Source: an uncultured archaeon | GTDB lineage: Archaea; CAYFZR01 | Assembly (NCBI GenBank): GCA_964347835.1 | Contig: CAYFZR010000065.1 | Coordinates: 19,496 to 83,495, forward strand | Reading direction: 5' to 3' | DNA: 64,000 nucleotides | Program-made: the position numbers and the translations under genes | Part shown: positions 2,852 to 61,778 of the stretch, in pieces | How positions within the stretch are numbered: the first letter of the stretch is position 1 | Layout: every line of letters begins with the position of its first letter | The notes under the pieces: generated by a model | The model's input: the letters and a program-made list of their open reading frames with translations, nothing else | Databases searched by the model: none | What the model was told of the DNA's origin: nothing

Positions 2852-3268
2852 TTAGAAGGGTCATGTCGTCAGAATTAACAATCGTTTTCTTATCAAAAAT
2901 AGTCATTCAAATGTCTTTTTTACCAACGAAGCCCAAACCATGATCTAAAATGAATTATCAGTAATTATTATAAAATCAAAAATCCTTATTTGGGTTCTAT
3001 TTCAAGAATTGGACTCTCTAGTTCATTTTCTGAATACAAAAAGGAAAATTTCATCTATATAGCTGATTATATCGGTAATTGTATTTAAACCGCAAAATAC
3101 TTATGTTTCGTGAAACTTAGTAAAAACACTTGGTGGGGGAGGACAGATAATATGTTTTTATTTTGAATCTGAATTAGCGTTGAAAACCTAGCATTAAACT
3201 TTTTTTAAATTTAACGCCAAGGAGGGGCGCTATGATAAAAATACTAATTAAAAGGGGAGGTGAAATAA

Positions 3269-3844
3269 ATGGAAATGTACAAAATGGGATTGATACTTTC
3301 ACTCCTGCTAATGATAGGATTAGTAGCAGGCTGTATTGGAGCAAAAGAGAAAGCGGCTGCACCCACGACACCAGCCATCCATGCTACAGGAAATATAGTC
3401 ACCATCATACCCTGCTCTGCCCCTGACGTGGATTGCATGTTCGAACAAAAATTCGGTGACGAGCTAATGAAGACCCGAAATCAATACAGTATATTTACGG
3501 GAACCATGGAGGGAACCGGGACCGGCGTGAATAGCCAATTAATAAACCTAAAGACGGGTAAAGCATTCAACTCGGCGTACGGTCACTTTGTCGGAACAGT
3601 GGGCGACTCAGAACCAGGCAGCTTCGCACGCTTCTGGACGTGGACCCTTGATATCCCAGCCTTACGTGGTGAAGAAGGTAATTACACGTGGGAAGGCTAC
3701 CATTGGGTTATCGAAGGCACCGGCATGGGTGGCCTGGAGGGTATCTGTGGAGGAGGAACCTTTGAGGGCTATGGTACGCCTGAGTTAGGCTTCACCACCA
3801 CCTATGACTTCGAGTTCCGCTTCGGCGAAGCTTGCAAAGAGTGA
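3269..3844 (+). CDS. Putative secreted lipoprotein, paralog 1 of a tandem pair
   Basis: 191 aa. Signal peptide with lipobox LVAGC. GGAGGTGA lies 7 nt upstream of the ATG. Confidence 0.6.
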   Translation: MEMYKMGLILSLLLMIGLVAGCIGAKEKAAAPTTPAIHATGNIVTIIPCSAPDVDCMFEQKFGDELMKTRNQYSIFTGTMEGTGTGVNSQLINLKTGKAFNSAYGHFVGTVGDSEPGSFARFWTWTLDIPALRGEEGNYTWEGYHWVIEGTGMGGLEGICGGGTFEGYGTPELGFTTTYDFEFRFGEACKE

Positions 3845-3912: not shown

Positions 3913-4158
3913 TAAAATACTAAACAGGATCTTAGGTTGAACTAATATCGGTAACTTTCACAAAATCGAAAATTACTTATATTTCGGAAAATACAAAGTA
4001 ATCTACCTTAATTTAGCGCCGATGGAGGGGGGCAGATAACATGTTTTATTTTAAATCTGAATTAGCGTAGAAATTCTGCTATTAATTATTTTTTTTAATT
4101 TAGCGCCGAGTGTGGGGCGCGATGATAAAAATACTAATTAAAAGGGGAGGTGAAATAA

Positions 4159-4728
4159 ATGGAAATGTACAAAAAGGGATTTTTGCTACTGTTAATGATA
4201 GGATTAGTAGCAGGCTGCATTGGAGCAAAAGAGAAAGCGGCTGCACCCACGACACCAGCCATCCATGCTACAGGACAGATAGTCACCATCATACCCTGCC
4301 AAGCCCCTGACGTGGATTGCATGTTCACCCACAAATTCGACAACGAGATAGTAGACACCCGAACTGCATACAGTATATTTACGGGAACCATTGAGGGAAC
4401 CGCGACCACAGTGCAGAGCCACACGCTAAACCTAAAGACGGCTAAAGCAATCGCCTCGGGGTACGGTCACTTTATCGGAACAGTGGGCGACTCAGAACCA
4501 GGCAGCTTCGCACGCTTCCAATCGGCTACTTGTGATGTCCCACGCTTACGCGGGGAAAAAGGTAATGTCACGTGCGAAGGCTACCTTCGGGTTATCGAGG
4601 GCACAGGCTTGGGTGGCCTGGAGGGTATCTGTGGAGGAGGAACCGAGAAGACCACGGGTTCGCCTGAGTTAGGCTTCACCACCACCTATGACTACGAGTT
4701 CCGCTTCGGCGAAGCTTGCAAAGAGTGA
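4159..4728 (+). CDS. Putative secreted lipoprotein, paralog 2
   Basis: 189 aa with the same signal peptide, lipobox and leader as paralog 1. A central patch diverges (FWTWTLDIPALRGEEGNYTWEGYHW versus FQSATCDVPRLRGEKGNVTCEGYLR). Confidence 0.6.
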   Translation: MEMYKKGFLLLLMIGLVAGCIGAKEKAAAPTTPAIHATGQIVTIIPCQAPDVDCMFTHKFDNEIVDTRTAYSIFTGTIEGTATTVQSHTLNLKTAKAIASGYGHFIGTVGDSEPGSFARFQSATCDVPRLRGEKGNVTCEGYLRVIEGTGLGGLEGICGGGTEKTTGSPELGFTTTYDYEFRFGEACKE

Positions 4729-6179: not shown

Positions 6180-6287
6180 TCAGTTCACCTCTGTTTGTAT
6201 TTTTCTGATTAGGATTTACCTGTATAAGAGTGTTACCTCAAAATCTTCTACCCTTATTAATAGTTTCTTTATTTTTCACATCCTTCT

Positions 6288-6523
6288 AGAAGGTGGTAAT
6301 ATTATACTTTATACTGAAATTATCTTATTCTAACCTATCACCCCCTCTCTACACCCCCATATAAAATTTAGAGTAGAGAACAAATATAGAGAAGAAAACG
6401 ACTCATTCGGTACCGTTAATAAAATAATTTTAGGTTAGTTATTATCTTTCTTTTGATCGAACTTTTTTTAAAAGTTCATTGCGGATGGAACGAGCCACAT
6501 TCCATAGCTAGCCACGTTCCATT
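6288..6523 (+). repeat. Copy A of a modular intergenic repeat family (P module + S module + hairpin H module)
   Basis: Contains agaaggtggtaatattatactttatactgaaatta..tatcaccccctctctacacccccatataaa..tttagagtagagaacaaatatagagaagaaaacgactcattcggtaccgttaataaaataatt..gaactttttttaaaagttcattgcggatggaacgagccacattccatagc. Near-identical to 31095-31392 and 56781-57047. Confidence 0.8.
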
Positions 6524-6853
6524 TTAAATAATCAAGTAATTCTCTATTTTTTCAAATATTTCCTCTAATTCATTTAGATCTTCGTCTCCGTTTAGATGGA
6601 ACTCGATGGTAAGGTCGTTTGCTCTCTTATCGTAATGTTTTACGTCTGCTTTTCTTTTCATTTTGTTTTCAAAGAAAGATTTGAGCTTTAATGCTTCCTC
6701 ACAAAAAGGCGTTATGGCCATAAATATGCCTTCAGGAGACACTGTCATGAAAAGAGATAATTCCTTGTTGTTGTATTTAAGATCAATAGAATATTGCACC
6801 ATGTTGGGATAAGGTGATAGCCTCCTTATATCGATGATTTCGATTGTTTTCAT
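6524..6853 (-). CDS. Hypothetical protein
   Basis: 109 aa ORF. Its stop codon abuts the hairpin end of repeat copy A. Confidence 0.4.
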   Translation of the reverse strand: MKTIEIIDIRRLSPYPNMVQYSIDLKYNNKELSLFMTVSPEGIFMAITPFCEEALKLKSFFENKMKRKADVKHYDKRANDLTIEFHLNGDEDLNELEEIFEKIENYLII

Positions 6854-9073: not shown

Positions 9074-9117
9074 AAGAATAAAAAATGATATATATTTGTT
9101 CAAACAGATTGTCAGAC

Positions 9118-9813
9118 ATGAAAAAAGCGATTATAATCTCATTGGTCCTTTTGGCTTGTATTGGTTCTGTAAATTCTGCAGAAATCGACTCTCTCTTCGT
9201 ATCAAACAATGTTGTTTACATCTTATCTGATGATACCTTAACTGCTTTAAGCGAAGATGGTATACTCCTCTGGAAAACTAGGGCTAAAAACATACTTACA
9301 AGAGCGAATGGAGTGTTGTATGTTGTTTCAGATGGTTATCTTAAAGCCTTAGATCAGTACTCTGGAGAGGAGATATGGAAACTAAATATAGTTCCCTCTT
9401 ACCTCAGATACTCCAACAACTTACTCTATGCATACAATGGAGAAAAACTCAAAGTTCTGGACAAGAGAGGTTTGAGTATGTGGGAGACGGATGCTAGTTC
9501 TGAACCATTATTTTCCTCCGGAATTATATACTTAAGATCTAATGGCGAAATTTTAGCCTTAAATCAATATACAGGGGAAATATACTGGAGTTTTAAGGAT
9601 ACGGGTTATCCTCTCTTCGTATCAAATAATGTTGTTTACATCTTATCTGATGATACTTTAACTGCTTTAAGCGAAGATGGTATACTCCTCTGGAAAACTA
9701 GGGCTAAAAACATACTTACAAGAGCGAATGGAGTTTTGTATGTTGTTTCAAATGGGTATCTTAAAGCCTTAGATCAATACTCTGGAGAGGAGATATGGGA
9801 AATTCTCGTTTAG
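9118..9813 (+). CDS. Secreted PQQ-like beta-propeller repeat protein with recent internal duplication
   Basis: The track ORF starts at 9085, but the signal peptide begins at the Met at 9118 (MKKAIIISLVLLACIGSVNSA). Repeats of the G.LYVVS.GYLKALDQYSGEEIW type. Confidence 0.6.
   Translation: MKKAIIISLVLLACIGSVNSAEIDSLFVSNNVVYILSDDTLTALSEDGILLWKTRAKNILTRANGVLYVVSDGYLKALDQYSGEEIWKLNIVPSYLRYSNNLLYAYNGEKLKVLDKRGLSMWETDASSEPLFSSGIIYLRSNGEILALNQYTGEIYWSFKDTGYPLFVSNNVVYILSDDTLTALSEDGILLWKTRAKNILTRANGVLYVVSNGYLKALDQYSGEEIWEILV
9189..9798 (+). repeat. Intragenic direct repeat: two near-identical segments of about 190 bp (9189-9378 and 9609-9798), period 420 bp
   Basis: ctctcttcgtatcaaa.aatgttgtttacatcttatctgatgata.cttaactgctttaagcgaagatggtatactcctctggaaaactagggctaaaaacatacttacaagagcgaatggagt.ttgtatgttgtttca.atgg.tatcttaaagccttagatca.tactctggagaggagatatgg occurs twice, differing at only a handful of positions. 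Confidence 0.85.
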
Positions 9814-16606: not shown

Positions 16607-16903
16607 GACCTTCAAAAAGGTCGATCATTTGGTCGAATTCGCTAACGCGAATTCAACAACTCAAATAGCAATAAACGTGCGATCTTCAAAACGCTCAACA
16701 ATCGAGGATTCTCGTGAGAGGTCGATCATTCGATAACATCGCAACCTTTTATAAAGGTTGAACAAAGGCACCACCTCCACCTTTTATAAAGGTGGAGCAA
16801 TGCTACTCCTGTTTGAGATGTTGAATTGCGAAGCAATTCGACCTGATGATCCACCTTTCAGAAGGTGGAATTCGACCTGATGATCCACCTTTCAGAAGGT
16901 GGA
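16607..16903. repeat. Array of about eight short hairpins/palindromes, including a 34-bp tandem direct repeat, directly upstream of tRNA-Ile
   Basis: cgacc-ttcaaaaa-ggtcg, gaattcgc-taac-gcgaattc, caacc-ttttataaa-ggttg, ctccacc-ttttataaa-ggtggag, gaattgc-gaa-gcaattc, and attcgacctgatgatccacctttcagaaggtgga x2 (16836-16903). Confidence 0.75.
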
Positions 16904-30543: not shown

Positions 30544-31092
30544 ATGAAGAGAAATGTTAACACGTATTTGATGGTAATAAACATCGTCTTAATATTTTCA
30601 CTGGTATCCATGGGTGTATACTCCGGCATTCAGTACAAGCGAGTCAACAAGTTGATAGATGAACTTAACTCGCAGTCAGAAAATCTAATAGTTAGGTTGC
30701 AAGGTAAAGAAGAACAGTTCAACCTTACTTTAAAGACACTAAATATCACCGAAAGTAAGATAGAAGCGCTTAAAGAAAAATACACCAAATTAGATACTGA
30801 GAAGACGAACCTTGAAAAAGTACTACAAAGTACAGTAAACGATTTGGAAAAAACAAAATCTGACTTGAGAGACTTAAGGCAAGACTACAACGAAAAACTT
30901 ATTGAGATTGAGACCTTGAATGCAAGAGTTACAGCCTACAAAAGAGAAAACACCAATCTAAAAGAGTCTTTAAGACAAGTAACACTCGACCTTTATGTGG
31001 CAACAGAGGAAATAGACAATCTGCACGACAAAATAGATGATCTAGAAGAAGATTTAGCGGCTTGTAGAGCAGCGAGTCCACCTCCTCCATGA
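30544..31092 (+). CDS. Membrane-anchored coiled-coil protein
   Basis: 182 aa. N-terminal TM helix, heptad-rich body, PPPP C-terminus. The stop codon directly abuts repeat copy B. Confidence 0.45.
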   Translation: MKRNVNTYLMVINIVLIFSLVSMGVYSGIQYKRVNKLIDELNSQSENLIVRLQGKEEQFNLTLKTLNITESKIEALKEKYTKLDTEKTNLEKVLQSTVNDLEKTKSDLRDLRQDYNEKLIEIETLNARVTAYKRENTNLKESLRQVTLDLYVATEEIDNLHDKIDDLEEDLAACRAASPPPP

Positions 31093-31094
31093 TT

Positions 31095-31392
31095 AGAAGG
31101 GGGTAATAATACATTTTATACTGAAATTACCTTATCCTAACTTATCACCCCCTTTCTAAACCCCTATATAAGAGGAGAAGAGAATAACATTAATTTCATA
31201 ACGTAATTATCCTATCTTACCTTATTAACCCCTTTATACACCTCCATATAAAGAAGGGGGTAAATCACCCCTTTCTAAACCCCCATATAATATTTAGAGT
31301 AGAGAACAAATGTAGAGTAGAAAAGGACTCATTTGGTACCGTTCATAAAATAATTATTTATAATATTGCGGGTGCAGCGAGCCACGCTGCAT
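31095..31392 (+). repeat. Copy B of the modular intergenic repeat family (three P sub-modules + S module + hairpin)
   Basis: agaagggggtaataatacattttatactgaaatta...caccccctttctaaacccctatataa...cccctttatacacctccatataaagaagggggtaaatcacccctttctaaacccccatataatatttagagtagagaacaaatgtagagtagaaaaggactcatttggtaccgttcataaaataatt...ggtgcagcgagccacgctgca. Confidence 0.8.
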
Positions 31393-31523
31393 AGTGTCAA
31401 TTTTTCCAACAAATTTGAAATATGTGCTATTGTCGAAAATGATTTAATAATTTTTCGAAAAATAAATCTGTCTATTTTCCCTCAAATTTGTAAACCAAAA
31501 CTCTATGGCTTAAAAGAGACATA

Positions 31524-31877
31524 ATGTACATTGGTGAGAGTATTAAGTCAGTTGGGGAAGAGAGCGGCCAGGGTGCCCTCGAATATTTTATTTTAACTGC
31601 CACTGGATTGGCAGTCATAGCGACGGGTACAGCGTTTATGAGAAAAGTTGCTATCGAAAGTAACTTAAAATCTGAGCGAGCGTATGGAAGAATAAATCAA
31701 TCAATCGAAGATATTTTAGACGAAATAGTCGAGGAATCTGAGATGCAAACCACCAATCAGGCACAAACATCGCCCTCTCCCCCACCGCAGAATACGCCAA
31801 CTCCCAACGAATCCACAGAACCACCTTACTCAAAAAATTCCAAATGCTGGGTATGTGGGCCCCAATCTCCATGTTAA
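31524..31877 (+). CDS. Class III (type IV pilin-like) signal peptide protein with Pro/Thr-rich linker and Cys-rich C-terminus
   Basis: 117 aa. N-terminal GQGALEYFILTATGLAVIATG fits the archaeal prepilin/DUF361-type signal. Followed by SPSPPPQNTPTPNESTEPP and CWVCGPQSPC. Confidence 0.45.
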   Translation: MYIGESIKSVGEESGQGALEYFILTATGLAVIATGTAFMRKVAIESNLKSERAYGRINQSIEDILDEIVEESEMQTTNQAQTSPSPPPQNTPTPNESTEPPYSKNSKCWVCGPQSPC

Positions 31878-50043: not shown

Positions 50044-51810
50044 TCATAATCTAAAAGAGTCCAATTCCCTCGGAGCCTCCACGCGCAAATCTGGAAGTCT
50101 ATTTTTAATCAACTTACTTAATTGAAGAATATTTTCTTCTTCTCCATGCACTAAAAATATGTTTTCGGGTTTTTTGGATAGAGAATTTATGAAATTCATT
50201 ATCTGTGGTCTGTCTGAGTGAGCGCTGAAAGTATAAGACTTTACTATCATATCCAACTTCAATTCCTTTCCATCCAATTCAATGGCTTTTTTTCCGTCTA
50301 GTATTTCTCTACCCAACGTCCCTTGAGCCTGATACCCCACGAGTACCAATAAGTTTCTCCTGTCATCATGTAGCCTTTTCAGATGATGTAAAACCGGACC
50401 TCCTTTCATCATACCTGATGTTGCGAGTATAATCGCTGGTTCAATTATCTTTTCCCTTCTTTTGGGCGTGATTGTACGGAAAATATCTGACAAAAATGGA
50501 TTATCTCTAGTTTCGTCGATTCTGCTTCTTATGCTCGACCGGAGGAAATCGGAATAGTGGGTGTATACCAAGTTAGCCTCTCTAACCATGCCGTCTATAT
50601 AGACAGGATATTTTTTTAGCGCGCCGGATCGCATGTACTCTTCCAAAACAAGCATGACCTCCTGGGACCTGCCTACTGCTGCTACAGGTATCAAAACGGT
50701 GCCTTCCCTTTCCATGGTTTCCTTTACAACTCTTACGAAGTCTGATTCTACTCCTTTTCTCGATGGATGAAGATCTTCCTTTCCGCCATACGTAGATTCT
50801 ATGATTAGGGTGTCAGCGTCGAATTTTTTTCTTGATATATCGAGTAATCTAGTCTTTCTATAACTAAAATCACCAGTATACAGCAATTTATAGTCATTGA
50901 GAGATAGATGAACTAAACTAGATCCAATAATGTGTCCTGCACTTTGTAATGTCAGTTTCACATTAGGAGATGCTATTACGCTCTTTTCATATTCAAGTGG
51001 TATTGCATGTTTTATAGAAAGTTCTATCCCTTTTTTTGAAAATAAAGGTCTAGAATTTCTTTTTGCCAATCTCAAGGTATCACTCCACAACAAATACATA
51101 ACATCCAGCGAAGGTCTGGTGCAAAATAAAGCGCCCTCAAAGCCATTTTCATATAGGTATGGAACAGCCCCACAGTGGTCTAAATGCGCATGAGAAATGA
51201 CGACAGAGTGTAGTCTATCGATTTCGAATTCGGGTAAATCGAATGATGGTAAAAGAGGCGGAGTTTGAGATGCATCAATGCCGCAATCGAGAAGAACACT
51301 ATCAGAGTTCGTATGAAATAGAAAGCACGACTTTCCTACCTGTCTGCAACCTCCAAGGAAGGATATACGCTTCCACTTTAATTCTTCTTTTTCTCTTAAC
51401 TTTTTGCCTATTTTTTTTAGACTCGCAGATCTTTCTCCGTACAGTACCTTGTTTACATTTCTGGTAGCCTGACAAAGTCTTTCGCGAGTCTCAATAATCT
51501 CAAAAACCCATCCTGTCTGTTTAACAAGGAGTTCCTTTGTCAAATTAACATTTGCCAGAAAGTAATTTAACTTAAGTTCTATAAGAACGACTCCGAAATC
51601 GGAGAAGTAGATATTTTGTATGCCCTTTGGGAATACTTTTTCCAGTAAATCCTTTACTTCATCTTTTTTTGCCCTATTTTTTTCTTCTACCCTTAATAAA
51701 ACTTCTTCTCCATGTTCCTCTTCTAATTCTTTTTTGAAATCAGGGTCAAACAGGTCATCTGTGTCAGAAGTAAAGTACACCAAATCAGTACCTAGACTTT
51801 CCACCTCCAT
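50044..51810 (-). CDS. Metallo-beta-lactamase/beta-CASP ribonuclease, aCPSF1 (FttA)-like
   Basis: 588 aa. HAHLDHCGAVPY (HxHxDH), downstream beta-CASP motifs and RMBL-like C-terminus (LVHGEE). N-terminal about 150 aa are KH-like. Confidence 0.75.
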   Translation of the reverse strand: MEVESLGTDLVYFTSDTDDLFDPDFKKELEEEHGEEVLLRVEEKNRAKKDEVKDLLEKVFPKGIQNIYFSDFGVVLIELKLNYFLANVNLTKELLVKQTGWVFEIIETRERLCQATRNVNKVLYGERSASLKKIGKKLREKEELKWKRISFLGGCRQVGKSCFLFHTNSDSVLLDCGIDASQTPPLLPSFDLPEFEIDRLHSVVISHAHLDHCGAVPYLYENGFEGALFCTRPSLDVMYLLWSDTLRLAKRNSRPLFSKKGIELSIKHAIPLEYEKSVIASPNVKLTLQSAGHIIGSSLVHLSLNDYKLLYTGDFSYRKTRLLDISRKKFDADTLIIESTYGGKEDLHPSRKGVESDFVRVVKETMEREGTVLIPVAAVGRSQEVMLVLEEYMRSGALKKYPVYIDGMVREANLVYTHYSDFLRSSIRSRIDETRDNPFLSDIFRTITPKRREKIIEPAIILATSGMMKGGPVLHHLKRLHDDRRNLLVLVGYQAQGTLGREILDGKKAIELDGKELKLDMIVKSYTFSAHSDRPQIMNFINSLSKKPENIFLVHGEEENILQLSKLIKNRLPDLRVEAPRELDSFRL

Positions 51811-56314: not shown

Positions 56315-56611
56315 TTGTTAATGAGATTCAGCAAGCAGATGTTAAAAATCTTATTGGTTCTGAGGAAACATCCCGAAGGATTGACTGAAGAGAAGATAAT
56401 TGCAAGGGGGGAAAGATTAGATAAAACGGAAAATGTGCAACTTAGAGCTTTTAAGTCCAGATACAAAAAATCTATCGAAAAATTGGTTTCTCGAGGTCTA
56501 ATAATCAGAAAAAAGAAAAAGTTCAAACTTACGGGAGAAGGTATTGACAGAGCTCAAGAGGCTTACAGCGAAATTAAGGAGTATTTCAAAGAATATCAAC
56601 ATTTGATTTGA
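56315..56611 (+). CDS. Small basic winged-helix-like protein
   Basis: 98 aa (LKILLVLRKHPEGLTEEKIIARGERL). Confidence 0.35.
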   Translation: MLMRFSKQMLKILLVLRKHPEGLTEEKIIARGERLDKTENVQLRAFKSRYKKSIEKLVSRGLIIRKKKKFKLTGEGIDRAQEAYSEIKEYFKEYQHLI

Positions 56612-56780
56612 CAAAGGCGAAAATTTAGAAAAATCATATATTTCGGTTATTGCCGATCGTTGATCGTAAAAAATAAAAATAAATTGTTGATAATTAATTT
56701 TAGAGGGCTTGTGCCCTCTGCCCCCCCCATTTTTCAAGATTTTTCATTGTTTATCAATTAGGTGCAGTTTTTTGATTAAG

Positions 56781-57047
56781 CTTTTTTTAAAAGTTCAAAT
56801 GTAACGAGCCACGCTAGAAGGGGGTAATAATACATTTTATACTGAAATTATGCTATTTTACCTCATCACCCCCTTTCTAAACCCCCATATAAAGAAGGGG
56901 GCAATCGCCCCCTCTCTACACCCCCATATAATATTTAGAGTAGAAAAAGGCTCATTTGGTACCGTTTATAAAATATCTTTCTTTTGATTGAACTTTTTTT
57001 AAAAGTTCATTGCGGATGGAACGAGCCACGTTCCATAGCCACGCTGC
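56781..57047 (+). repeat. Copy C of the modular intergenic repeat family (half-H module + 2 P sub-modules + S module + full H module)
   Basis: ctttttttaaaagttcaaatgtaacgagccacgct-agaagggggtaataatacattttatactgaaatta...caccccctttctaaacccccatataaagaagggggcaatcgccccctctctacacccccatataatatttagagtagaaaaaggctcatttggtaccgtttataaaat...gaactttttttaaaagttcattgcggatggaacgagccacgttccatagccacgctgca. Confidence 0.8.
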
Positions 57048-57050
57048 ATT

Positions 57051-59045
57051 TTATTCATTTTCATTCGTTCTCAAGAGTTCTTTCGCTCTTCTCTCTTTGT
57101 ATTCATAGATGATATCCTCGATTGTGTCTAAATGTTCCATATCTTTTTGTTTTTTATCTTCCAATAGCCAATTCTCAATTTCTTTCTTGAAGAGTTCTGA
57201 ATCTATAACTGCAAAATCGTCAACATGTCTGAGTTTTACCTTATCAGGATCTATTATAGGAATATTCTCTTGTTTAAATACCTCTTCTGCTACGTGTGAC
57301 ATCCCTTTTTTCGCTATGATACATTTTGCGCCTTTCGCCAATGATTTTGCTGTGGAGGCTCCACCTCCACTCACATCCATAATGTATATAACATCGTTAG
57401 AGAGTCCAACTTGGTCTTTTAATTGTTTTATACAGTCTTTAGAGAATGTGTTCAGTATTTTAACTGGTTTTATCTTTTTTGAGGGTTCTAAAGAGTGAAT
57501 TCTTTTTAATCTTTGAAGTTCTTTTGCATATCTTGAGGATCTCTCCTTTTCCTTAATTATTTCTGTTTTTAAATCTTCAATCATTTTTTCTTTTGCTCTA
57601 AGAAGAGTATCTTTTCGTATCTCTATATCTTCCTCTTTTACGATTCTTTCGAGTTTTATTTGTAACTCATTTTTCTCAGAAATTATTTTCTCCTTTTCTT
57701 CTATTAAAAATACGTTTTCTTCCTCTAATCTATCAATTCTCTTTTCTAATTTCTTAATTTTGTTTATAAAATCTTTCAAATCATCTTTTTCTGGGTGCTT
57801 CTCCACTACTTTCTTTGTTTTCTCTTTTTTCTCGGTTACCATATTGACAGCATCTCTCAGCGTGTAGCCTTTTATCGTTAGTTCCTTTATTTTATTAACG
57901 TCCCCCTTGAAACCAATATCTTCTAGTTTACTACTTATCTGTAAAAATTTATTTTTATAAGAATTAAATGCCTTGATGGCAGCTGCTAAAGAGTCTCTCT
58001 GATGGGAATCGTTGGGAGGATGTATTTTCTCTTCCATTATGTAAGCGTTGACAATTTCCCTCTTATCCTGTACGCTTAGTTGATCGTGAGAAATCAACTT
58101 AGCATTAAATATTGCTGATATCTTTTCAATCTGTTTTGGAGGAGGGTGGATATCTGTTGTTACTATCACAGGAGTGCCGAATTTTCCTACAAAATTTATT
58201 ATGTCGCTTCTTGACATATTTTTCATACTTTTGATGGATAAAAGGCGACCATTGAGATCAAGTATTGATAAACCCGTTGTCGTTCCAGGATCTATTCCCA
58301 CAATCAAAGGAGAAGATTGTTTTCTCTTTTCAAATGTTTTCATTCTTGTTGGTTTTACTGTAACCCTGACGTCAGGACCTTTTACTTCTCTTAAAAACTT
58401 CTTAATCTTAGGGTAGGTTGCATAAGCAGTAAATTCGCTTCTAGAATATCCTTGATCTTTGGTTTTAATATTTAAGTCATAGTCAATACTTTTTTCATCT
58501 AAGTTTCGTTTAACCTCTCTTGTAACCTGCTGGATCAGATTGTGAATCTTTCTTCTGTATCTTGCTTGGCTAAATCCCCCCGGTCCAATGCTTCTTGCTC
58601 TACTCACAATGATTTTGGTAGCGTCTTCAATTTGTGCTATTTCTGTTCCTATACCCTTATCTGCGAGTAATGCACATACACAGGCTTCTTCTAATGAAGA
58701 AGCCCTCTCTCCGAGATGGATTCCATATTTTTTAGCGATTTTATGCAGGGGAATTTGTTTCCCAAATGTGCCAGTTACTTGGACGATTCTGGTTTCTGGA
58801 GATAAATTATCCAAAAAACGTTTCAGGCGCCTCCTGTTAGGTACTAATTCATATACGTTATCCGTGGCGAGTATATTCGGCTTTTCTTTGTAAATTAGCC
58901 TTAAAAGTTTGTGATAGCTGACTCTTTCAAAAGAAAAAACGACGCTACCATCTTTTACTCCAACGGCAGAGAAGTATGGTTGTCTTTTTCCTCTAATTGA
59001 GCCGTATACAACATCGACTCCTACTGTGCGCAAATATACCACCAA
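57051..59045 (-). CDS. Archaeal COG2433/DUF460-type protein: RNase H-fold (RuvC/YqgF-like) domain plus long coiled coil
   Basis: 664 aa. IVGIDPGTTTGLSILDLNGRLL (RNase H-like first strand), central Lys/Glu-rich coiled coil, conserved N-terminal domain. Confidence 0.55.
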   Translation of the reverse strand: MVVYLRTVGVDVVYGSIRGKRQPYFSAVGVKDGSVVFSFERVSYHKLLRLIYKEKPNILATDNVYELVPNRRRLKRFLDNLSPETRIVQVTGTFGKQIPLHKIAKKYGIHLGERASSLEEACVCALLADKGIGTEIAQIEDATKIIVSRARSIGPGGFSQARYRRKIHNLIQQVTREVKRNLDEKSIDYDLNIKTKDQGYSRSEFTAYATYPKIKKFLREVKGPDVRVTVKPTRMKTFEKRKQSSPLIVGIDPGTTTGLSILDLNGRLLSIKSMKNMSRSDIINFVGKFGTPVIVTTDIHPPPKQIEKISAIFNAKLISHDQLSVQDKREIVNAYIMEEKIHPPNDSHQRDSLAAAIKAFNSYKNKFLQISSKLEDIGFKGDVNKIKELTIKGYTLRDAVNMVTEKKEKTKKVVEKHPEKDDLKDFINKIKKLEKRIDRLEEENVFLIEEKEKIISEKNELQIKLERIVKEEDIEIRKDTLLRAKEKMIEDLKTEIIKEKERSSRYAKELQRLKRIHSLEPSKKIKPVKILNTFSKDCIKQLKDQVGLSNDVIYIMDVSGGGASTAKSLAKGAKCIIAKKGMSHVAEEVFKQENIPIIDPDKVKLRHVDDFAVIDSELFKKEIENWLLEDKKQKDMEHLDTIEDIIYEYKERRAKELLRTNENE

Positions 59046-61239: not shown

Positions 61240-61297
61240 TTTATTTCAGTATAAAATTATTCTTAATAAATTAGCGTGTGCAGCGAGCCACGCTGCT
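61240..61297. repeat. Partial copy D of the repeat family: inverted P-module fragment plus CGAGCCACG hairpin
   Basis: tttcagtataaaat is the reverse complement of attttatactgaaa. gtgcagcgagccacgctgc is identical to the copy B hairpin. Lies directly after the stop of the 61302-61778 gene. Confidence 0.6.
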
Positions 61298-61301
61298 TAA
61301 C

Positions 61302-61778
61302 TTATCTTCTCTTTCTTGCTTTAACGTGGATAGACCAGCCGAATAAATTTGGAAACCAGTTATAGTAAAATCTGTCATAATCCTTTACATATGTAGGATC
61401 GAACCCAACAAGTCTTAATACTTTCATTAAATCCTTTGGGTGTACTAATTTCGTGTGATAAGGGTTCCAACCGCTTTCCCATTGAATTTTACCTAAAAGA
61501 TATAATATTTTTCGTCTAACGGTGAACATATTCGGCGTTGTGAATTCCAAGATTCCGTCGGATTTTAATATTCTAAAGCATTCTCTGAAGAAATCAATGG
61601 GATGTATCGTAAGATGTTCTAACAATTCAAATGCTAGGATATATTCACAAGAATTATCCTCGAAGGGATAAGGAGTAACGTTTAGATCTAATATTCTATC
61701 CGGCTCAAAATCCGGGTTTATATCTATGTTTATAAACCCTTCTCTCTTTTTCAATCCGCAACCCAGATTTAATTTCAT
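61302..61778 (-). CDS. Class I SAM-dependent methyltransferase
   Basis: 158 aa. Motif I LNLGCGLKKREGFINIDI. Confidence 0.7.
   Translation of the reverse strand: MKLNLGCGLKKREGFINIDINPDFEPDRILDLNVTPYPFEDNSCEYILAFELLEHLTIHPIDFFRECFRILKSDGILEFTTPNMFTVRRKILYLLGKIQWESGWNPYHTKLVHPKDLMKVLRLVGFDPTYVKDYDRFYYNWFPNLFGWSIHVKARKRR

Follow-up and report, generated by a model that had tools for sequence, protein, structure and literature searches.

Mosaics of interspersed palindromes are known in detail from bacteria and have hardly been described from archaea. Correia elements, for example, are co-transcribed with neighboring genes and have promoter-like ends. The palindromes of the repetitive extragenic palindrome (REP) and bacterial interspersed mosaic element (BIME) families lie at the 3' ends of genes, where they often abut the stop codon or provide it (PMC3733652; PMC2817692). 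A REP has, by definition, a conserved tetranucleotide, GTAG or CGTC, at one of the palindrome's ends, and bacterial GTAG REPs often supply the TAG stop of flanking open reading frames (ORFs) (PMC3733652). A BIME is defined by successive palindromic units that alternate in orientation (PMC2817692). The element described here lies in the chromosome of an uncultured archaeon of hydrothermal origin, in a 64,000-nt stretch of contig CAYFZR010000065.1 (the window). It is a polar mosaic of hairpin cassettes, all in a single orientation and in the fixed order L, S, M, T1, T2, and the copy of primary interest (copy B) stands between a coiled-coil gene and a pilin-like ORF. With a probability of about 0.5, copy B is deduced to be one locus of a gene-end cassette family resembling either REP/BIME repeats or Correia-type MITEs (miniature inverted-repeat transposable elements), which would provide 3'-end or terminator hairpins and evolve by recombination and concerted evolution.

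Cassette structure and copies in the window

The window is AT-rich (~36% GC) and its genes are housekeeping genes, including Ftr, Mer, ribonucleotide reductase, an energy-coupling factor (ECF) transporter, MoxR/VWA, and others. The repeat search yielded three full copies (A, B, and C) and two fragments, all on the + strand and all intergenic, against a chance expectation of 0. Cassettes were delimited by alignment and folding. The L cassette (~78 nt) was found to consist of a 65-nt hairpin followed by the tail AACCCCCATATAA. Its arms, TAGAAGGGGGT and ACCCCCTTTCTA, form 11 bp with one bulged base and enclose a 42-nt loop that holds the near-invariant TTATACTGAAATTA; as terminal inverted repeats they measure 11 to 12 nt, with the terminal TA belonging to the palindrome. 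The only variable stem-adjacent position was the bulged base. It changes together with a second position, so that units are of two types, TTTCTAAA and TCTCTACA, which tend to alternate inside arrays. The S cassette corresponds to the L hairpin minus its loop (fold z-score −2.7), and a C5-ATATAA tail follows every L or S. The M cassette, whose pattern was found in 3/3 window copies, is a purine-rich spacer with an 18-nt tandem inside it and an A/T tract at its end; by folding it is unstructured (z +0.8). The T1 hairpin (GAACTTTTTTTAAAAGTTC) carries a T7 tract and was present, among the full copies of the window, in A and C only. T2 consists of TTGCGGATG followed by an 8-bp stem with the loop AGCCA and then by ATAG. 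A further cassette, X, is a 50-nt double hairpin (CGCACCAAAATCATAGATTTTGGGCG + CAATAATCTTCGATTATTG; z −3.9) that was observed in metagenomic relatives only and is absent from the window. The S, T1, T2, and X hairpins are 19 to 26 nt each, and the z-scores of S, T1-T2, and X ranged from −2.7 to −3.9.

The data for T2 proved particularly informative. Eight T2 sequences comprised five distinct stems, all of which pair (93.8% of cells paired), and double compensatory changes were found in 3/8 pairs, a level reached by 0/500 shuffles and by no slid control. The loop AGCCA and the 5' flank were invariant in the T2 sequences compared. It was concluded that T2 pairing is under selection, and of all the evidence this speaks most clearly for selection on a folded strand, which may be either strand and either RNA or single-stranded DNA (ssDNA). 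An A/T tract lies on the 5' side of T2, and a T4-5 tract was observed on its 3' side in copies A, B, and C and in the related locus L021.

A preliminary description of copy B had reported three CCCC..CCCCCATATAA sub-modules where other copies have one or two. When the pattern CCCCTYTCTAMACCCCCATATAA was searched with up to 3 mismatches, six matches were obtained in the window, all on the + strand, compared with 0 expected from 100 shuffles: one in copy A (6342), three in copy B (31149 with 1 mismatch, 31229 with 2 mismatches, and 31268 exact), and two in copy C (56870 and 56909). The counts of 1, 3, and 2 thus agree with that report, and the likeness to a minisatellite that had been proposed is borne out, as copies, strains, and species all differ in the number of sub-modules. 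The same description was accurate in placing the repeat directly after the TGA of the coiled-coil gene and in its general extent, while its boundaries needed slight correction: the start is at 31094 (TAGAAGGGGG), 1 nt past the TGA, rather than at 31095, and the end is at 31394 (T2) or 31405 (T5) rather than at 31392.

The assignment of the first L cassette of copy B (L1) was supported by nhmmer (E 1.6e-21), by the sub-module match, and by its fold. The second (L2) was 65% identical to L1 and was still recognized by nhmmer (E 5e-8). The S cassette of copy B folds with −15 kcal/mol. The T5 tract after T2 is conserved in the orthologous locus L021 and is a possible archaeal oligo-T termination signal. 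Coordinates are collected in Table 1, in which loci outside the window are designated by L and a three-digit number.

Table 1. Coordinates of the repeat copies, of the cassettes of copy B, and of adjacent features
Feature	Position	Strand	Composition or remarks
Copy A	6287-6521	+	L (6287-6364), M, T1 (6459-6477), T2 (6478-6508), extra loop and 3' arm (6510-6521)
Right neighbor of copy A	6524-6526 (stop codon)		Convergent gene
Copy B	31094-31394	+	L, degenerate L, S, M, T2
Cassette L1	31094-31171	+	Arms 31094-31104 (TAGAAGGGGGT) and 31147-31158 (ACCCCCTTTCTA); 42-nt loop with TTATACTGAAATTA; tail AACCCCTATATAA = sub-module 1
Cassette L2	31174-31251	+	Degenerate L with decayed arms GAGAAGAGAAT / AACCCCTTTATA; contains sub-module 2
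Cassette S	31252-31290	+	AGAAGGGGGT-aaatc-ACCCCTTTCT + AAACCCCCATATAA (sub-module 3)
Cassette M	31291-31364	+	18-nt tandem TAGAGTAGAGAACAAATG / TAGAGTAGAAAAGGAC; contains GACTCATTTGGTACCGTT; ends in A/T tract ATAAAATAATT
Cassette T2	31365-31394	+	ATTGCGGG; 8-bp stem 31372-31379 / 31385-31392, loop AGCCA, ATAG; covariance model match 54 bits
T5 tract	31401-31405	+	9 nt after T2
Coiled-coil gene	30544-31092	+	182 aa, N-terminal transmembrane segment; ends ...AASPPPP-TGA, 1 nt before the element
Candidate promoter of pilin-like gene	31434-31470	+	CGAAAA-tga-TTTAATAA (31434-31452), second CGAAAA-ATAAAT; predicted; outside the element
Pilin-like ORF	31524-31877	+	117 aa, class III signal-like motif GQGALEYFIL
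Copy C	56815-57048	+	L (56815-56892), S (56893-56931), M, T1 (56990-57008), T2 (57009-57039), extra 3' arm
Right neighbor of copy C	57051-57053 (stop codon)		Convergent gene
Remnant fragment	56770-56814	+	T1 and half of T2 (...CTTTTTTTAAAAGTTCAAATGTAACGAGCCACGC), directly left of copy C
Orphan unit	61243-61301	+	3' end of M and T2, without L or S; assigned from repeat family and sequence; T2 covariance model match 45.5 bits
X cassette	L017 46-95; L014 64-108; L009 1470-1491		Inserted in or between L cassettes

In both copy A and copy C, an extra loop and T2 3' arm lie beyond the complete hairpin (6510-6521 and 57035-57048). The extra arm of copy C is of the copy B stem type, and AGCCACGC in the remnant to the left of copy C (56808-56815) recurs at 57035-57042, giving a direct repeat that flanks the whole element. 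The extra arms suggest insertion into, or recombination with, an older solo T2.

Placement relative to genes

At seven independent loci (copy B/L024, L001, L002, L015/L028, L008, L009, and L013), the element is co-oriented with its upstream gene and either begins 0 to 13 nt past the stop codon of that gene or supplies the stop codon. The following gene showed no such regularity. It is convergent at L001, with its stop codon 2 to 3 nt after T2, as in copies A and C, and it is a + strand gene after T2 at L002. Most of the other copies have no co-directional gene behind them. Parts of the element also occur by themselves: L015 and L028 contain L only, and the orphan unit at 61243-61301 is a T2-only locus between two minus-strand genes, 0 to 3 nt after the stop codon of one (61302-61304) and upstream of the other. 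A coding role was considered and rejected. Two small ORFs, 30929-31114 (−) and 31366-31524 (+), overlap copy B but are not conserved, and the repeat is full of stop codons.

For the coiled-coil gene that precedes copy B, only weak coiled-coil Pfam matches were obtained; its orthologs are P0003 (99% identity) and P0004 (75%, from a Hydrothermarchaeota metagenome-assembled genome [MAG]).

Related loci and turnover of the cassettes

Comparison of orthologous loci demonstrated both conserved junctions and rearrangement of the cassettes. L010/L025 came from the same strain as the window (99.8% identical), and up to the end of the contig its cassettes matched those of the window. L017 represents a strain variant of copy C; its flanks match those of copy C at 100% identity over ~210 nt, and it has one sub-module and a 50-nt X insert instead of the two sub-modules of copy C, the X cassette replacing the L 3' half, the first sub-module, and the S 5' arm. 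The comparison of sub-module number among strains that had been suggested in the preliminary description therefore gave one versus two between identical flanks. At L024, from the JBHIEG MAG, the coiled-coil ortholog (75%) and the element meet at exactly the junction of copy B, TGA-T-TAGAAGGGGG, and the cassettes are in the order L-L-M-T2-T1-T2. L021, a Logan contig with the ortholog of the pilin-like ORF (68%), starts within T2 itself, the spacing to the gene being equal to that in the window, and its T2 stem differs from that of copy B by a compensatory G-C to A-T change.

A second cross-species comparison was possible directly after the NAD kinase (NADK) gene, where an L cassette was found in both species (L015 and L028). 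In L015 the TAG of L is the NADK stop codon, and in L028 a TAA lies just before the mutated L start. The next gene is mch in one species and a bioY/ECF transporter gene in the other (L015 9649-9836 versus L028 3823-4067). Since synteny breaks directly after the L cassette, the repeat is deduced to mark a rearrangement breakpoint. No polymorphism of this locus was observed among five assemblies of the second species. At both cross-species loci the junctions were preserved despite 14 to 25% protein divergence.

Nested or truncated L cassettes were found at L007, L013, and L014, with nesting at the same loop position. Within a genome, L cassettes (paralogs) were 90 to 94% identical, versus 79 to 83% between orthologs, and this closer similarity of paralogs points to concerted evolution. 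Between species L was the best conserved cassette and M, which is diverged in the other species, the least conserved. Cassettes are thus gained, lost, and swapped between strains and species.

Distribution and database searches

An exact-pattern scan of 185,579 species genomes gave matches in only one Candidatus Hydrothermarchaeota MAG, JBHIEG01 (loci L001 and L002). The metagenome scan gave nine true matches, all from assemblies JABAOF and JABAOH, the remaining matches being due to chance. The true matches were mostly at contig ends, and many contigs broke inside the repeat, as expected because repeats break assemblies. Relatives are present in the metagenomes SRR29324583-87 and in the JABAOF/JABAOH samples. 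Exact look-ups of three window proteins and of P0001 retrieved no contig. From these scans the family appears to be specific to Hydrothermarchaeota and related metagenome contigs. Patterns for L, T2, X, and the sub-module gave only chance matches in viral contigs, to high-GC phage coding DNA or an unrelated hairpin, and the scans thus gave no sign of a viral origin of the repeat. Within the window and ~137 kb of related loci, neither a T2 covariance model nor an L profile hidden Markov model detected extra copies, and in the ~137 kb examined for a full-length insertion sequence (IS) no further AGAAGGGGG ends bounding an ORF were found. Rfam 15 at the gathering threshold returned two tRNAs and nothing else for the whole window; an E-value scan of 30900-31600 gave a best score of 20.9 bits against a cutoff of 50 (E 0.39).

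Promoter-like sequences and the pilin-like ORF

A local promoter consensus was drawn from the upstream regions of tRNA-Glu and ~20 genes and was found to be cAAAA-TTTWWAWA, 30 to 45 nt before the ATG. A sigma-70 promoter scan was set aside as inapplicable to archaea. The preliminary description had likened the sub-module cores to archaeal TATA boxes. The A/T resemblance is real, but on the + strand the CCCCCATATAA core has a C5 tract at the position of the A-rich transcription factor B recognition element (BRE), and the orientation is ambiguous, the minus-strand reading CTAAAT(A/T)TTATATGGGGG / CTAAAT(A/T)TTATATGG being a better fit to the local consensus. An archaeal promoter has its BRE directly 5' of a TTTAWATA-like box, which lies ~25 nt ahead of the transcript start. 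Between T2 and the pilin-like ORF, the pair CGAAAA..TTTAATAA is kept as CGAAA-TTTATTTG in L021.

The pilin-like ORF was present where it had been predicted, with a QxSxExxxL-like motif (QGALEYFIL). The match to PF04021 was 10.2 bits (cutoff 23.7, E 0.79), and that of its ortholog P0002 (68% identical) was 14.1 bits (E 0.048). Since these matches are below threshold, the pilin-like label is taken from the motif. The ATG at 31524 is not conserved in the ortholog (L021, about 166), where ATAATGTAC is matched by ATATATAAT and the gene caller produced a protein of 170 aa; the true start codon and the length of the signal peptide are therefore uncertain. The terminator-like hairpin that had been noted ~130 bp before this ORF was confirmed, its stem being followed by the T5 tract and lying 131 nt upstream of the ATG.

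Interpretation of the element

We propose a REP/BIME- or Correia/MITE-like origin for the array, which would grow and shrink by recombination or slippage between cassettes bounded by G5/C5 tracts, with gene conversion keeping the copies alike. The element would be tolerated, and probably retained, as a gene-end module. It may be transcribed as the 3' untranslated region (UTR) of the co-oriented upstream gene, in which case the hairpin starting at the stop codon and the T tracts (T7 in T1 and T4-5 after T2) could form or protect the mRNA 3' end. Given the A/T tracts on both sides of T2, this hairpin could also close convergent transcripts. At copy B, the element would presumably be the tail of the coiled-coil gene, insulating it from the pilin-like gene, which would start from its own promoter downstream of T2.

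Several observations weigh against this proposal. At copy A, L007, and L014 the upstream gene is divergent, and the L hairpin therefore cannot be a 3' UTR there. The T tract after T2 is absent in L001 and L002, and archaeal termination is generally ascribed to oligo-T tracts and not to hairpins. The conserved TTATACTGAAATTA and the invariant TTGCGGATG and AGCCA suggest sequence-specific recognition, which a simple hairpin model would leave unexplained. We infer the transcription of the element, its 3' ends, and its stabilizing or terminating effect. As for mobility, a Pfam scan of 30 window ORFs, all housekeeping, identified no transposase, integrase, or reverse transcriptase, and hence no cognate transposase; the same scan gave no REP-associated tyrosine transposase (RAYT), Y1 transposase, TnpA, or TnpB/OrfB. 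No empty site was found, both loci comparable across species being occupied in both (a small sample), and a direct repeat that might represent a target-site duplication (AGCCACGC) flanked only the composite copy C and was found at none of A, B, L001, and L002. With no transposase, empty site, or consistent duplication found, a mobile origin is still conjectural.

The alternatives differ in how much of the data they would accommodate. A purely selfish or neutral, decaying MITE/REP-like family, located at gene ends since selection purges insertions elsewhere and homogenized by gene conversion, is somewhat unlikely. It would fit an L cassette with 11- to 12-nt terminal inverted repeats ending in TA that occurs in long and internally deleted (S) forms and nests in other L cassettes at the same loop position; the swapping of cassettes between strains, the synteny break directly after the element at the NADK locus, the frequent breaking of contigs inside copies, and the greater likeness of paralogs than of orthologs point the same way. 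It fits poorly with the filling of both cross-species loci in both species, junctions being kept at 14 to 25% protein divergence, or with T2 pairing that is kept by compensatory changes, the orthologous locus included. Also against it are L stem variation confined to the bulged base and the lack of a transposase (30 window ORFs) or an empty site (two loci). Alternatively, the family might consist of small RNA (sRNA) genes in which CCCCCATATAA would be the TATA box, an RNA of ~80 to 130 nt would extend from a start in M to T2 and its T tract, and the L/S palindromes would be operators. An A/T-rich TATA-like core at a fixed position before M, a conserved and covarying T2 hairpin with a T4-5 tract after it (copies A to C and L021), and the presence of the element where no downstream gene could be served are all consistent with such genes. 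This reading is weakened by M, which would be the body of the RNA and yet is unstructured (z +0.8) and the least conserved part between species, whereas L, the "promoter" part, is the best conserved. The lack of an A-rich BRE at the core, the closer approach of the minus-strand CTAAAT-TTATATGGGGG to the consensus, the L-only (L015 and L028) and T2-only (61243-61301) loci, and the lack of an Rfam match lead us to consider it rather unlikely.

Recognition could also be of the duplex, with the element serving as a double-stranded DNA array of binding sites (AGAAGGGGG half-sites, the TTATACTGAAATTA box, and T2 TTGCGGATG/AGCCA) for a protein that recognizes specific sequences, for instance a regulator, a recombinase, or a nucleoid or architectural factor. 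This was judged quite improbable because the compensatory changes in T2 favor a folded single strand (RNA or ssDNA) over duplex recognition and no candidate protein was identified, although the blocks that are invariant beyond the needs of pairing (the L loop box and the T2 5' flank and loop), the conspicuous G5/C5 tracts in a 36% GC genome, and the duplication of a related palindrome, CCACCTTTCAGAAGGTGG, upstream of tRNA-Ile would be accounted for. The least likely reading, and a very remote one, is that of the preliminary description, namely, that the element serves the downstream pilin-like gene as a 5' leader or an array of promoters. The two are co-oriented, a + strand gene also follows T2 in L002, and the arrangement, or at least the distance of T2, is conserved in a relative. 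This reading was nevertheless poorly supported. The following gene is convergent in A, C, and L001, so that there is nothing to drive, and it is convergent or absent at the orphan unit as well; the family tracks upstream stop codons and not downstream starts; the + strand core has C5 in place of an A-rich BRE; a hairpin and T5 tract intervene between the cores and the gene; and downstream of the element, between T2 and the gene, there is a BRE/TATA-like pair that is conserved. It was concluded that the element is probably not the promoter of the pilin-like gene.

Four known structures were also considered and rejected. A C/D-box sRNA was rejected as CUGA is present and a UGAUGA box is not, an archaeal SECIS element as the upstream genes are not selenoproteins and there was no Rfam match, and an integron attC site as its neighbors, at 25 kb from one another, are housekeeping genes. 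Origin-recognition boxes showed a loose resemblance in the loop and G string, with the wrong spacing and dispersed copies.

The tRNA-Ile duplication is a perfect tandem (16835-16902) of a 34-nt unit, AATTCGACCTGATGATCCACCTTTCAGAAGGTGG, that ends 4 nt before tRNA-Ile (16907). Each unit contains the hairpin CCACCTTTCAGAAGGTGG, whose half-site AGAAGGTGG equals the L 5' arm of copy A, and a TGATGA box.

A stronger form of the gene-end proposal would make the family an archaeal BIME counterpart, with modular, polar gene-end cassettes kept across species by concerted evolution. Their hairpins, L at the stop codon and T2 with its covarying stem, invariant loop, and A/T tracts on either side, would be read by a dedicated factor that sets mRNA 3' ends or terminates bidirectionally. 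Since termination in Archaea is generally placed at oligo-T tracts without hairpins, this would mean hairpin-dependent 3'-end formation in Archaea, and we regard it as unlikely. Among the products of the window is a 588-aa RNase of the beta-CASP/metallo-beta-lactamase type that carries an RMMBL domain (50044-51810, −). The archaeal CPSF-like cleavage/termination factor belongs to this class, which would be of interest if the repeat has a role in forming 3' ends.

Significance

If functionless, the element is an ordinary repeat family. The family would provide a tractable case for three questions: whether the 3' ends of archaeal mRNAs are shaped by hairpins at stop codons, by what means repeats that lack an obvious transposase persist, and how they drive strain-level variation and rearrangement. 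It accounts for the fragmentation of assemblies of these Hydrothermarchaeota at certain intergenic sites. It is also a warning for annotation, as repeat DNA can be the source of stop codons and of what looks like the promoter of the pilin-like gene.

Other features of the window

Three further features were recorded. A ~440-nt direct repeat (3156-3596 and 4044-4480; 80 to 87% identity) covers the upstream region and N terminus of two tandem paralogs (3269-3844 and 4159-4728) of ~190 aa with signal-peptide-like N termini; it holds a hairpin, GCGCC..GGGGCGC, and a strong Shine-Dalgarno sequence. A 191-nt direct repeat (9191-9381 and 9611-9801; 96% identity) lies within a PQQ/beta-propeller-like ORF (9085-9813). 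Downstream of a small winged-helix-like gene (56315-56611), a GC-rich hairpin at 56703-56735 (AGAGGGCTTGTGCCCTCT) is followed by C8 and T5; it has the look of a terminator and is separate from the repeat family.

Comparison with known repeat systems

The palindrome-associated transposable elements (PATEs) of the IS200/IS605 family resemble this element in having hairpins near both ends (L on the left and T2 on the right here), no whole-element terminal inverted repeat (TIR), no target duplication, and a single orientation within the window. The element differs from them in that no conserved tetranucleotide lies 5' of the left end, where a PATE would have a 4- to 5-nt target or cleavage motif (flanks GAT, TTC, CGC, AAG, CCA, GAA...) and neither TnpA nor TnpB was found among the 30 window ORFs scanned. 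Archaeal MITEs (Sulfolobus SM1-SM4 and the MITE-like repeats of Haloquadratum) are likewise small, noncoding, intergenic repeats with strain-level structural variation. Those elements are single units with TIRs that match a resident IS and with target-site duplications, whereas the present element is a polar mosaic for which no matching IS or consistent duplication was found. The Correia elements of Neisseria and MITEs of the enterobacterial repetitive intergenic consensus/intergenic repeat unit (ERIC/IRU) type share a size of ~70 to 150 nt, TIRs beginning with TA, and long forms accompanied by internally deleted short forms, comparable to L and S. In the present family, however, no TA duplication could be demonstrated: the palindrome itself includes the terminal TA, and composite C alone has a flanking direct repeat. 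The copies adjoin other cassettes in chains instead of being scattered one by one, and variation is at the level of cassettes, with no presence/absence polymorphism observed at the two orthologous loci compared.

Compared with the REP/BIME repeats of enterobacteria and pseudomonads, the differences are the archaeal host, the lack of a GTAG/CGTC tag (T2 is flanked by GCGGA and ATAG, and L starts with NTAG, where N is G in 1 of ~16 units), the 42-nt conserved loop of the L unit, a cassette order that is fixed and polar (L, S, M, T1, T2), and the lack of a RAYT transposase among the 30 window ORFs. In addition, all L/S units in arrays and all window arrays are co-oriented rather than alternating. 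The likenesses are that both are multicopy, short, intergenic palindromes in a mosaic with other short motifs and that both occupy gene 3' ends, where they touch or supply the stop codon. Both also have two alternating unit variants (TTTCTAAA/TCTCTACA here and Y/Z in BIMEs), and the roles proposed for both are the stabilization of mRNA 3' ends and termination.

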